This document shows positions 13,649 to 32,000 of a DNA stretch of 32,000 nucleotides, piece by piece. Each line of letters opens with the position of its first letter. Positions within the stretch are counted from its first letter, which is position 1. Location: NCBI RefSeq assembly GCF_002803295.2, contig NZ_PGGB02000007.1, positions 57,414 to 89,413 on the forward strand, read 5' to 3'. The position numbers and the translations under genes are program-made. A model generated the notes under the pieces. That model saw nothing but the letters and a program-made list of their open reading frames with translations. It was not told the origin of the DNA and made no database searches. The stretch comes from Caedibacter taeniospiralis (GTDB taxonomy: Bacteria; Pseudomonadota; Gammaproteobacteria; Francisellales; Francisellaceae).

Positions 13649-13833
13649 CGCAAACCATTTTACAGACTTTCTGACATTGCATTTTGGCTGATTTTGAGTG
13701 ACTGAATTTTGATAATAGAGCTTGCTATTACCTGCAATCCAGTCATTCAAAATCCTCACAAACTGCTTTCCCATAAATCCCGCAAAATGATTTACGATGG
13801 GTATAGATATTTTCTGACGAAACAATACCTCCT

Positions 13834-13892
13834 CCCATAATCGCGTGTTGCGTAAGGGCGTATTGCATACGCCCTTGTGCTTATTCAAATAA
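13834..13892 (-). repeat. 59-nt intergenic repeat, copy 1, containing the hairpin GGGCGTAT-TGC-ATACGCCC
   Basis: The reverse complement aligns without gaps to 30374-30432 at 48 of 59 positions (manual alignment). The ends TTATTTGAATAA and ATTATGGG are shared. Confidence 0.8.
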
Positions 13893-14066
13893 CAGCGTGA
13901 GGTGACTTTTCCCACATTCGTAATCCCCGCCTTTTGCCACCTTTTTCCCAAATATATCTACATTCCTGGTGCAAAGCCAGCAGAATTTTAGAACCCCGCT
14001 TTTAATTTTGTGTATACTGCAAAGCTATGCTGTACCAGGCAGTATATCAAATTTTAATGTGGAGAG

Positions 14067-16965: not shown

Positions 16966-17100
16966 GTGATTAAGATTCAAGATTTGCTAGATGAACAGTA
17001 ATGTTATGAAAAGGTGCGCGCATTACGTTGGGCAGATGGAGTGAGCTGTCCACATTGTATGGCGTCATCAGAAGAAATTGTAAAGAGAAGAAAAATTTAA
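16966..17100 (+). pseudogene. IS1595-family transposase, N-terminal zinc-ribbon fragment with an in-frame TAA
   Basis: VIKIQDLLDEQ*CYEKVRALRWADGVSCPHCMASSEEIVKRRKI*. The stop at 16999-17001 sits where this family normally has Lys (KCYEK). The fragment ends at 17098-17100. Confidence 0.7.
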
Positions 17101-17233
17101 ATGCGTGAGAATTACGTTTTAAACAGAAATAAGCAATTAGTTAAAGACTATAAAACTGTCGGTTCCACATTAGTAGCTAGTCTCAAAGTAATTAATAATA
17201 CAACAAGTATTAAAGTATAACAAATGAAAATAA

Positions 17234-17530
17234 ATAGGGTGCCTCGGGCCTCATGATAGATTTTGTATATCCATACACAAAATCGAATCGGCTATCCTCG
17301 GCGGTATAAATTTTGCCCGGGCCGCCCGCCTCAACGGTGCTTGTCCTCACAAATTCGCTACGCTCATTCCGAACAGACAACACGTTTCCGATTCTACTCT
17401 ACGCCTTGGGTAAAAGCTTTTTCACAGACTTCGCTCTGGCGCCTTCGGCACGTCGCTTGCTGATCAACAGCGCAAGGCTACCCGGGTCTACTCGCCCTCG
17501 CGTTCCGCTATCCATGGCTCGCAGCGATTG
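17234..17530 (+). mobile_element. GC-rich ORF-less repeat element, copy A, lying inside the IS1595 remnant
   Basis: The first 55 nt are identical to 31946-32000. A subterminal hairpin lies at 17259-17284 (GATTTTGT...ACAAAATC). GC-rich runs such as cccgggccgcccgcctc and gcgccttcggc occur in an AT-rich context. The right boundary is approximate. No convincing ORF is present. Confidence 0.6.
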
Positions 17531-17641
17531 AAGAAGTAATAATATTCAACGAACATAAAACTTGCAAATTGATATATCTATCACAAAACGATTGAACTCT
17601 GAGAAGGAATTGCTGAAATCAGCGAGTTGGTTTTACTTAAA

Positions 17642-17951
17642 GGTGATAATGTATGCGATGAAGTGTACGTTGTTGCCGGACACAAAAGGTCAGCCAGCTC
17701 AGGTTAAAAAAGGTCGCAAAGGCAGGAGAAACCGATTGAAAGGAGCAAGAGGTCGAGGCACTTTGGAGAAAGAAAAGCCTCCTATATTTGGGATGATTCA
17801 ACGTGGAGGAGAAGTGGTTATTCAGATGCCTCCTGATGTCAAACAAAAGACGATTAAACCGCATATTGAAGCGTGCATACAGCCTGGTAGCAAGGTATAT
17901 ACAGACGAGTATGCAATCTATTCCAATTTAACGAGTTATTGTCAAATTTAG
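17642..17951 (+). pseudogene. IS1595-family transposase, DDE-domain fragment (frameshifted and 3'-truncated)
   Basis: GDNVCDEVYVVAGHK is followed by a +1 shift in the A-run near 17683-17687. The sequence then reads GQPAQVKKGRKGRRNRLKGARGRGTLEKEKPPIFGMIQRGGEVVIQM...VYTDEYAIYSNL. It loses similarity at about 17930. Confidence 0.75.
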
Positions 17952-20617: not shown

Positions 20618-20708
20618 TAGTAGGGTGGATAAGCCGCAGGCGCATCCACGCGGAAAAGCAAACAGGTTAAGTATTGGTGGATGCGCCTGCGGCTTATCCA
20701 CCCTACTA
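20618..20708. repeat. REP/BIME-like element: 32-bp perfect inverted repeat with a 27-nt loop
   Basis: The arms are 20618-20649 (tagtagggtggataagccgcaggcgcatccac) and 20677-20708, which is the exact reverse complement. Each arm is itself a small hairpin (GTGGAT...ATCCAC). Confidence 0.9.
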
Positions 20709-30238: not shown

Positions 30239-30373
30239 AATATATTACTTTTCCCGATTTTTTCTATCCCTCGGCATAATACCACAGCATATCCAAATGC
30301 AGCCTAAAAAATTAAAATTAATCTCTACACACGATTATTTATCGGGCTTAAATCTCGACTTTGGATAAAACTT

Positions 30374-30432
30374 TTATTTGAATAAATGCAAGGACGTATG
30401 CAATACGCCCCCACACAATGCGTCATTATGGG
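30374..30432 (+). repeat. 59-nt intergenic repeat, copy 2 (hairpin GGACGTAT-GCA-ATACGCCC)
   Basis: See copy 1 at 13834-13892. This copy is in the opposite orientation and matches at 48/59 positions by manual alignment. Confidence 0.8.
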
Positions 30433-30464
30433 CAAGGATATTGTCAATGCCGAAATTTGTAAAA

Positions 30465-31565
30465 TTACGGGGCAATAGTAAGCTGATCCTGTTGCAACAC
30501 ATCTTTAATTGTTAATGCGCCATTATCGAGCCAAAAACGAGTGTCTGGCTTAGCTTGTAAAATAAGTAGTGTCATTAATGGGTGATTCAGTTTAACTAAT
30601 TTGTCATTTTGCACGCGCTTAAATAAATGTTTTCTATGATATAAAACGCCATTCTTATACTCAAACATTGGAGTATAGTTTGACGTTTCCACAGGTCGGG
30701 GAAGGTAATCTATTACACGATATTCCTTAGGCAAGACACCAGTTTGGAAAGCTTTATAAACTTCGTCAACCGACACTTGAACAGCCTCTATCATCATCTC
30801 CAGATTTTGTTTATTTTCTTTATCATATGCTCTAGCATCGCCATATGCCAGCCAAGTTTGGCTTTTACCATCTTTTTTTATGTTATTGGTAACCTCTAAT
30901 CCATATAAATTTTCTTCATTGTGCATTGTTCCAGCCAGTAACCCGCCAACTGTCGTAGAAAATATTTCCAAAGCAAGCTCTTTTCTGGGTGCTCTCAAAT
31001 GACCTGCAGCAAATGTATCTGTTAAAAAATGATTAGCAAAACCATCTTGAGCGTAAGCTAACTCTAGCAACATTCTTTGCTTTGTATTGTTAGTTTCGTT
31101 ATGCGCCGCAATGGCTGTGTCAATTGCAACTGCATGCCCAGCTGCATAAGCTTTAAAAGCGTAGCCTCCATAAGCAAAATGATCCCAGTTAGTTTCACTT
31201 AGCTGCAGCATTCTTCCCTTTGGAATATATGCGCTGATTACAGAGCCACCGCCTGTTGCAATATTGTACTCTTTATTAAGCGTGCTGTTGATTTCTTTAT
31301 ATGCTTTGGATGGTTCTTCACCACGATTTAGAGCATCATTAATCAAGTTTTTTTCTTGTTCAATAATACTCAACAGCTTTGGCACCTCGATTAGTGCACG
31401 CTTTTCCTGAGCCAAAGTATTAAAAGCATTTATAAAACGTTGCTTCCTTTCACTTTCTGTTTTGCCATCAGAGATAGGGACGTCCACAATACCAAAAAAA
31501 TCAGGCATTGCGACAAATTCACCATAAGTAAGCCTAAGCCCATTATAACCATAAAAAGATGGCAA
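30465..31565 (-). CDS. Putative zinc-dependent phospholipase C / P1-nuclease-fold protein (effector-like); the N-terminus is probably disrupted
   Basis: AYAQDGFANHFLTDTFAAGHLRAPR resembles the H..D....H metal motif of Zn-PLC (alpha-toxin HYFGDIDTPYH). The ORF starts only at a TTG with no RBS. A good RBS+ATG at 31829 lies in the same frame but is separated from it by four stop codons. Confidence 0.5.
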   Translation of the reverse strand: MPSFYGYNGLRLTYGEFVAMPDFFGIVDVPISDGKTESERKQRFINAFNTLAQEKRALIEVPKLLSIIEQEKNLINDALNRGEEPSKAYKEINSTLNKEYNIATGGGSVISAYIPKGRMLQLSETNWDHFAYGGYAFKAYAAGHAVAIDTAIAAHNETNNTKQRMLLELAYAQDGFANHFLTDTFAAGHLRAPRKELALEIFSTTVGGLLAGTMHNEENLYGLEVTNNIKKDGKSQTWLAYGDARAYDKENKQNLEMMIEAVQVSVDEVYKAFQTGVLPKEYRVIDYLPRPVETSNYTPMFEYKNGVLYHRKHLFKRVQNDKLVKLNHPLMTLLILQAKPDTRFWLDNGALTIKDVLQQDQLTIAP

Positions 31566-31916
31566 ATTTAAAGGGAGCTTTGATGCTTGCTCTTTCCCAT
31601 TTGGGAAAGATAGCTCAACACTATCTCCAATGATGGTATGTTCACCGCCATCATAACCTAGATATTAAGCCCTTCGTCATTACTCGATAGCATTTTGATT
31701 TTAGACAAATAGACCAACCTGTATCAAAGACACACCTTCTAACAAAAAATATGACTTCGGAATTTTTACCATATCCTTTTCTTCATCGTTTAAAACTTGA
31801 GTTTGTTTCATGTGATAAATTTGATTCATTTTTGGGACTCCTTTTTCATGGATTGAACAGACCACAGAAGTGAACAAAAAAGCTCTTTCACATCCTGCGA
31901 TATGATAGTTATTTGA

Positions 31917-31947
31917 GATTTTTGATTTTTGATTTTTGATTTTTGAT
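31917..31947. repeat. Heptanucleotide microsatellite (GATTTTT)x4 plus a partial unit
   Basis: Units start at 31917, 31924, 31931 and 31938, followed by GAT at 31945-31947. The repeat abuts the left end of GC-rich repeat copy B. Confidence 0.9.
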
Positions 31948-32000
31948 AGGGTGCCTCGGGCCTCATGATAGATTTTGTATATCCATACACAAAATCGAAT
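31946..32000 (+). mobile_element. GC-rich repeat element, copy B (left end only, continues beyond the window)
   Basis: All 55 visible nt are identical to 17234-17288. Confidence 0.6.

Follow-up and report, generated by a model that had tools for sequence, protein, structure and literature searches.

A short ORF-less repeat in a dead IS1595 gene of Caedibacter taeniospiralis belongs to a family of non-autonomous mobile elements of Gammaproteobacteria

The window, by which we mean the whole 32,000-nt stretch of Caedibacter taeniospiralis DNA analysed here, contains a dead IS1595-family transposase gene that is split by a GC-rich repeat unit, copy A (Table 1). An N-terminal fragment lies on one side of the unit (the Zn_ribbon_IS1595 domain match covers approximately 17003-17098) and a DDE fragment of the same gene on the other. 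The GC content of copy A is 54.6%, versus 40.8% for the whole window; it is 49-58% in the stretch after the repeat start and 29-37% in the flanks. The only ORFs overlapping copy A encode 57-72 aa and are spurious. A GC-rich, ORF-less repeat inside a dead IS1595 gene, as a previous sequence-only reading of this DNA had described it, is therefore what lies at the locus. When the 291 nt are subtracted, the spacing of the two IS1595 fragments equals that in an intact gene, indicating that copy A is a simple insertion in the dead IS1595. Copy A is a discrete, multi-copy, ORF-less unit that lacks terminal inverted repeats. It is probably an ordinary, inert member of its family, with no evident effect beyond occupying the dead IS1595.

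Table 1 Features of the element copies and of the interrupted host gene in the window
Feature	Position	Strand	Details
Host fragment, N-terminal Zn-ribbon of dead IS1595 transposase	16966..17100	+	In-frame stop; PF12760, E = 6.6e-6
Element copy A, complete, 291 nt, AGGGTGCC...GGCTCGCAGCG	17236..17526	+	Ends set by five pKAP298 copies with common ends and differing flanks
Subterminal hairpin, arms ATTTTGTAT and ATACACAAAAT, loop ATCC	17260..17283	+	24 nt from left end; covaries among Caedibacter, Piscirickettsia, Legionella and metagenome lineages
Small GC hairpin GCG-TTC-CGC	17500..17508	+	18 nt from right end; compensatory variants in other lineages
Most conserved block of the family, TATCCATGGCTCGCAGCG	17509..17526	+	Right terminus; CC[AT]TGGCTCGCAGCG invariant in all lineages retrieved
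Target bases ATTG after copy A	17527..17530	+	G at +4 is 17530, the family target cue
Host fragment, DDE of the same dead IS1595 transposase	17562..17951	+	PF12762 (DDE_Tnp_IS1595), E = 4.2e-13, profile positions 18-94 of 153
Element copy B, first 53 nt	31948..32000	+	Exact repeat of the start of copy A; ends at window edge

The start of copy A recurs at the right edge of the window, where an exact 55-nt direct repeat joins 17234-17288 to 31946-32000 (zero such repeats are expected from dinucleotide shuffles). In a plasmid search, the C. taeniospiralis plasmid pKAP298 gave a 99% blastn match and was found to carry five copies of the element, all of which have the left end AGGGTGCCTCGGG and the right end CCATGGCTCGCAGCG in unrelated flanks. 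These common ends place copy A at 17236-17526 and the start of copy B at 31948. The 55-nt repeat noticed earlier is thus real, and the boundaries of the unit are moved to 17236 and 31948, so that 53 nt of the repeat lie inside it. Window positions 31671-32000 are 99.7% identical to pKAP298 31737-32065, and the plasmid copy at this locus is internally deleted to ~115 nt; since the two loci match, copy B may be the same ~115-nt short form.

These last 330 nt (31671-32000) are a pKAP298-like segment in an otherwise chromosomal window (efp, orn, epmB, luxS, rarA and ppx), and may reflect integration of plasmid DNA or a mobile region that window and plasmid have in common. The stretch common to the window and pKAP298 includes four TTTTTGA repeats at 31918-31945. 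The window ORF at 212-1255 encodes a 'transposase' domain of the PD-(D/E)XK nuclease family (PDDEXK_2, Rpn-like), and pKAP298 also carries an Rpn-family gene together with two PD-(D/E)XK-like genes. A separate ~80-nt repeat with the hairpin GGGCGTAT-TGC-ATACGCCC occurs at 13822-13895 and, inverted, at 30371-30444 (77-80% identical); one of its copies is intergenic, just 5' of the ORF at 30465-31565, and a tRNA gene is present at neither site.

Homologues of the element are abundant in Piscirickettsia salmonis. The right-end 60 nt match P. salmonis plasmids at 79% identity, and the homologue in this species is 285-288 nt long (CGTAAGCGTCGC...GGCTCGCAGCG), with at least 68 chromosomal copies and many plasmid copies. 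The P. salmonis plasmids gave 5641 matching places in 337 records, with a query that also held an IS30 fragment. Further homologues were retrieved with a pattern taken from the conserved right end, which recovered P. salmonis chromosome and plasmid copies as well as copies in Legionella sp. PL0403, L. drancourtii, a Legionellaceae MAG, one Legionellales MAG and two Gammaproteobacteria MAGs. After two chance matches in coding sequence had been set aside, 49 metagenome contigs added further lineages. The element thus represents a family of non-autonomous, ORF-less mobile elements of intracellular and aquatic Gammaproteobacteria (Caedibacter, Piscirickettsia, Legionella and other Legionellales). 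The family, common to Caedibacter, Piscirickettsia and Legionella, is apparently undescribed: the literature searched held no description of the repeat in any of these three genera, while an ISfinder entry may exist. In the Legionellaceae MAG RH-23may17-45 (loci L011-L123), all 28 listed copies lie within ~120-190 nt of a contig end, and the repeat evidently breaks the assembly of this MAG.

Across the family, members range from ~250 to 345 nt in length and consist of conserved sequence blocks interleaved with variable hairpins. In addition to the right terminus, internal blocks (GTCCTGCGTCC, ATGACTCTACGCC, AAGGCTAC and CTACTCGCCC) are kept across genera, and ~150 nt of internal sequence are conserved in this way. 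Such cross-genus internal conservation exceeds what transposase binding at the ends needs, and it is unexplained. The distances between the 5' and 3' motifs of the copies cluster at 240-290 nt. An autonomous copy was sought among ~160 loci through unusually long motif distances, all of which were explained by other insertion sequences or by masked sequence. The elements were found to be interrupted only by other insertion sequences, namely IS30, IS6, IS1 and IS4/IS5-like ones.

Terminal inverted repeats are absent from copy A, from the pKAP298 copies and from the other lineages (AGGGTGCC... and ...GGCTCGCAGCG are not complementary), so the statement that none is evident now extends to all lineages compared. 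Each end carries a subterminal hairpin of its own kind, with a 7-10-bp AT-rich stem and an ATCC loop on the left and a 3-5-bp GC stem and a triloop on the right. The left hairpin had been recognised ~25 nt from the boundary in the window alone; its position at 24 nt from the left end is now joined by compensatory changes in other lineages. We built a covariance model of the left 94 positions, which had 39 matches among 31 sources (Caedibacter, Piscirickettsia, Legionella and metagenome lineages). In this model 13 of the 18 pairs change on both sides, and 87.5% of the cells are paired, versus 69% in shuffles and 31-46% in slid controls, on an alignment that was fitted to the model and hence favours it. 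The ATCC-loop hairpin is the clearest helix of the element, with 6 of 8 pairs changing on both sides and 92% of the cells paired. The right-end hairpin varies to GTGC-TTA-GCAC in P. salmonis, GCC-TTC-GGC in Legionella, and GGC-TGC-GCC and GCT-TTC-AGC in the loci L027 and L151/L168, respectively.

Neither strand of the whole element folded more stably than shuffled sequence (z = +0.93 and +0.28). The wobble counts, 39 G-U versus 19 A-C, come from an alignment fitted to one strand and do not identify the strand that folds. Hairpins that a protein recognises in single-stranded DNA account for these folding data no less well than a globular RNA would. A scan with covariance models of known RNA families, which had been put forward as a check, returned nothing for the element: the whole window had no Rfam match at the gathering threshold, and positions 17100-17700 at E <= 10 gave only a chance-level narK (E = 8). 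The proposal of an omega-RNA scaffold is not supported, given the lack of an Rfam match (HEARO and IS605-orfB motifs included) and of tnpB, iscB or tnpA beside any of ~200 copies in the ~160 loci examined.

The products of insertion were read from filled and empty sites on P. salmonis plasmids. The copy at 8879-9166 of L005, compared with the empty L008/L009, lies at GGGAG/TGGG (the slash marks the junction; empty allele ...GTCGGGAG/TGGGTAC...), and the copy at 2761-3048 of L004, compared with the empty L010, lies at CTAA/ATGG (empty allele ...GGCACTAA/ATGGAAG...). In both pairs the element was inserted exactly between two bases, with zero target duplication and zero loss, and the pairs prove that it is mobile. 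Beyond the conserved ...CCATGGCTCGCAGCG end, a G occupies position +4 in 148 of 154 unique sites (p about 1e-97). In a target logo of 81 reconstructed P. salmonis targets, this position carried 1.98 bits and every other position < 0.3 bits, while a few metagenome lineages have T at +4 instead of G. The cue therefore adjoins one end of the element only and fixes one of four bases, G at +4 or, on the complement, C at -4. The sole strong target requirement is a G four bases 3' of ...CCATGGCTCGCAGCG. Looking for further genomic copies, for the ends and for the insertion target, as had been advised from the letters of the window, was thus productive, giving the five pKAP298 copies, family-wide ends and the G at +4. 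The targets of the 81 P. salmonis copies are unrelated, although the copies themselves are nearly identical and free of any hypervariable segment, indicating that the target is not chosen by a copy-specific guide.

The orientation of the copies is tied to replication. Of 68 copies on the chromosome of P. salmonis NZRLO1, 61 occupy the lagging strand of their replichore (p = 7e-12), which is the C-rich one and was identified from the GC skew of each 8-kb locus. The same preference was seen in other taxa, where 44 of 60 copies, including both copies of the window, were on the C-rich strand (p = 4e-4). Since the copies are on the C-rich strand, the complement of the window strand is the lagging-strand template. 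Orientation relative to host genes was mixed in the cases examined, so that transcription is unlikely to cause the strand bias. In a survey of insertion sequence orientation, bias was found mainly in IS200, IS200/IS605, IS607 and IS91, and not in IS1595, IS30 and IS630 (PMC3971601).

Taken together, exact insertion without duplication, the lack of inverted repeats, the asymmetric hairpin ends, the one-sided cue and the lagging-strand-template bias can be read as single-strand transposition. We infer from these features that the element may be a non-autonomous substrate of a trans-acting HUH-type transposase, and give this reading, including its single-strand intermediate and enzyme class, about an even chance. 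The element would then move as single-stranded DNA at replication forks, and would be cleaved and rejoined by an HUH enzyme acting in trans, for which Y1 of the IS200/IS605 or RAYT kind is favoured and an IS91-like Y2 is possible. The strand expected to be mobile, as judged from single-strand elements, would be opposite to that of the window and read 5'-C-N-N-N/CGCTGCGAGCCATGG...-3'. On this strand the C at -4 of the cut would be the sole base-specific target contact. The conserved 18 nt together with the small hairpin would serve as the recognition site of its left end, and the ATCC-loop hairpin as that of its right end. The single-strand reading also predicts a circle junction, ...GAGGCACCCT/CGCTGCGAGCC..., in which ...CACCCT is joined to CGCTGC....

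With the IS608 and IS200 TnpA proteins as tblastn queries, no HUH (Y1) gene was found in ~0.9 Mb of loci that included the window and pKAP298. In a plasmid search with an IS200-type TnpA, Piscirickettsia was not among the genera with many matches, a result that is uninformative for this genus. No parental element with the same ends occurred among ~160 loci, and neither a recurring neighbour transposase nor a repeated neighbour ORF was present in the Legionella loci. The earlier likening of the unit to an ORF-less IS200/IS605 derivative is partly supported, by the exact insertion, the cue at one end and the strand bias; the two end hairpins, however, are unlike, and of the 4-5-nt target one base alone is fixed. 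Because of the unlike end hairpins, the single-base target, the Y1 gene and parent not found, and the unexplained core, we do not assign the element to IS200/IS605.

A non-autonomous derivative of an IS91-type rolling-circle (Y2 HUH) element, whose right end would be the origin next to a degenerate tetranucleotide target and whose left end would be the terminator, is in our estimate unlikely. The geometry fits, in that inverted repeats and duplications are lacking and the cue touches only the better-conserved end, and IS91 has a replication-orientation bias (PMC3971601). IS91-family transposases are also frequent in the P. salmonis loci, but the IS91-like element of this species has the ends AAAGAGGCCTCC... 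and ...TTCTTCAATAT, neither of which is related to an end of our element, and the Caedibacter and Legionella loci examined contained no IS91 gene. IS91 targets are full tetranucleotides, GTTC or CTTG, whereas the flank of the element is N-N-N-G; moreover, the motif distances of 240-290 nt include none of the variable-length products that an IS91-like one-ended process yields. Distinctly unlikely, in our view, is a new class of single-strand element in which the conserved core (~150 nt of blocks plus covarying hairpins) is itself functional. The folded DNA or RNA would in that case recruit a host or unrecognised enzyme, or join directly in strand cleavage and joining; the G at +4 would be read by one base contact, and the element would not be a passive IS200/IS605 or IS91 substrate. 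We regard as very unlikely a SINE-like retroelement, in which a structured RNA would enter single-stranded DNA at the fork, to be copied in trans by the reverse transcriptase of a group II intron. Conserved internal blocks and covarying hairpins would be expected of a functional RNA, exact insertion is compatible with an RNA-mediated route, and endonuclease-less group II introns share the preference for the lagging-strand template. One pKAP298 copy (38855-39145) even runs straight into a group II intron, with a reverse transcriptase gene 450 nt downstream. This intron (39146-41058, L003; 3' end ...CUACUCGAC) is class-C-like and was recognised from three features: a match to positions 101-219 of the RF02005 model, the presence of domains V/VI, and a reverse transcriptase-maturase gene disrupted by frameshifts. 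Related introns begin ~37 nt before position 1 of the Rfam D1-D4-6 model, which shows that the pKAP298 intron is 5'-truncated, with ~115 nt of the normal 5' end missing. The adjacency consequently looks like an insertion of the element at a truncated intron, and the flank, TATG, obeys the target rule. Against the retroelement also stand the absence of a reverse transcriptase from the ~110 searched genome loci of up to 8 kb each, the lack of a domain V or VI and of a D1-D4 match in the element, and its folding, which is no better than that of shuffled sequence.

The remaining explanations concern enzymes of other classes. That the unit consists of the left end of an IS110-family element joined to its right end, encodes a bridge-RNA-like guide and is moved by a DEDD recombinase seems highly improbable. 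A complete IS110-family transposase (PF01548 + PF02371) does lie inside one metagenomic copy of the element, at L168/L175, and orientation bias has been seen for IS110 in some genomes (PMC3971601). However, this IS110 has its own ends, the inverted GGACTCATCCG...CGGATGAGTCC, and occurs in L177 and L179 without element sequence around it, so that it is a secondary insertion, independent of the element. The absence of inverted repeats and target duplications matches IS110 elements, which have neither. The 81 near-identical P. salmonis copies in unrelated targets without a guide-like segment contradict the IS110 reading, and there is no core dinucleotide common to the element ends and the empty sites. 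The bridge-RNA-like leader suggested earlier is set aside on the same grounds, namely near-identical copies in unrelated targets and no variable guide. We give almost no credence to a DDE-type MITE, a foreign GC-rich DNA fragment or a stationary non-coding RNA gene. A short, ORF-less, multi-copy unit within another insertion sequence could suggest one of these, but the terminal inverted repeats and target duplication of a DDE-type MITE are absent, none being found in ~200 copies, and the filled and empty sites prove mobility. An orientation linked to the replichore is likewise unexpected for DDE-type MITEs, since IS1595, IS30, IS630 and similar families are unbiased (PMC3971601).

Several candidate relationships with introns were tried and rejected. 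The element is not the 5' part of the pKAP298 intron: other copies end in GCAGCG with unrelated flanks, no reverse transcriptase lies near ~110 loci, and the intron is truncated. The RF00029 and D1-D4 models match the intron and not the element, whose ends vary by lineage (CGTAAG, AGGGTG, ATAAGG) and are not of the group II type 5' GUGYG ... AY 3'. A likeness of the element end to one Peribacillus intron is missing from the family consensus. The right flank T-N-GAAG-N-N-GTA, considered as intron sequence, is the start of an IS91-type gene in P. salmonis and is present at the empty site.

Two of the other mobile elements met in these loci can be described further. The P. salmonis IS91-family element at 4630-6116 of L093 is 1487 nt long, with the ends AAAGAGGCCTCCTGCG... 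and ...TTCTTCAATAT and an empty site at ~798-802 of L016; the L093 copy has a 35-nt duplication at its right end. Two copies of our element directly adjoin the left end of the P. salmonis IS91-family element. The IS110-family insertion sequence (L168/L175/L176; L177 and L179) encodes a 347-aa DEDD transposase followed by a ~330-nt non-coding tail, and its close homologues number in the thousands, most of them on contigs 1.2-2.5 kb long.

If the reading as a substrate of a trans-acting HUH transposase is right, the element would be a compact parasite that has spread over several genera of intracellular bacteria, including the salmon pathogen P. salmonis, moving by a single-strand route linked to the replication fork and asking unusually little of its target. 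In the annotation of these genomes, the element accounts for many short "hypothetical proteins", split genes and contig breaks. For the biology of mobile DNA, it is a natural case of a non-autonomous element that has a strong strand bias and a core larger than end recognition needs, and whose transposase was not found. Were its partner enzyme to be found, a new HUH subtype, or another role for a known one, could come to light.

We compared the family with the known systems that it resembles. Group II introns of the class-C-like kind share the exact insertion, the lagging-strand-template bias of endonuclease-less introns and, at one copy, direct adjacency, whereas the element lacks domains V/VI, GUGYG...AY ends and an Rfam match, and no reverse transcriptase lies near its other copies. 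IS110 elements with their bridge RNA also have no inverted repeats or duplication and a structured non-coding end; in contrast, the targets of the element are not sequence-specific, and it has neither a guide segment nor an associated DEDD recombinase. The IS91 family has in common with it the absence of inverted repeats and duplication, one strongly conserved end followed by a cue, and the replication-orientation bias, but the target of the element is not GTTC/CTTG, its ends are unrelated to the P. salmonis IS91-like ends, and its length is fixed.

REPINs, mobilised by RAYT (TnpA-REP), are likewise high-copy, non-autonomous and hairpin-bearing, and are presumed to be moved by an HUH enzyme whose single-copy gene may lie elsewhere in the genome. 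In REPINs a ~35-nt palindrome with a conserved GTAG is doubled symmetrically to ~100 nt, whereas the element is asymmetric, ~290 nt long and built of several distinct blocks. The window itself holds a REPIN-like doublet at 20618-20708: two 32-nt arms, each a GTGGAT...ATCCAC palindrome, form a perfect inverted repeat around a 27-nt spacer. This doublet hints at the possible presence of a RAYT-type tyrosine transposase in the genome. The ORF-less derivatives of IS200/IS605 (PATEs) resemble the element in their length of a few hundred nt, the lack of inverted repeats and duplication, the subterminal hairpins, the one-sided cue, the orientation tied to replication and mobilisation in trans. Their target, in contrast, is a fixed motif of the TTAC or TTGAT type, and that of the element is one base (C followed by three free bases on the presumed mobile strand). 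The hairpins at IS608-type ends are similar to each other, whereas the left and right hairpins here are unlike. The element further differs from PATEs in its ~150 nt of conserved internal sequence, and in that neither a parental IS nor a Y1 transposase was found. PATEs and RAYT-mobilised REPINs are thus the closest known things, from which the family differs in its target rule, its end architecture and its conserved core.
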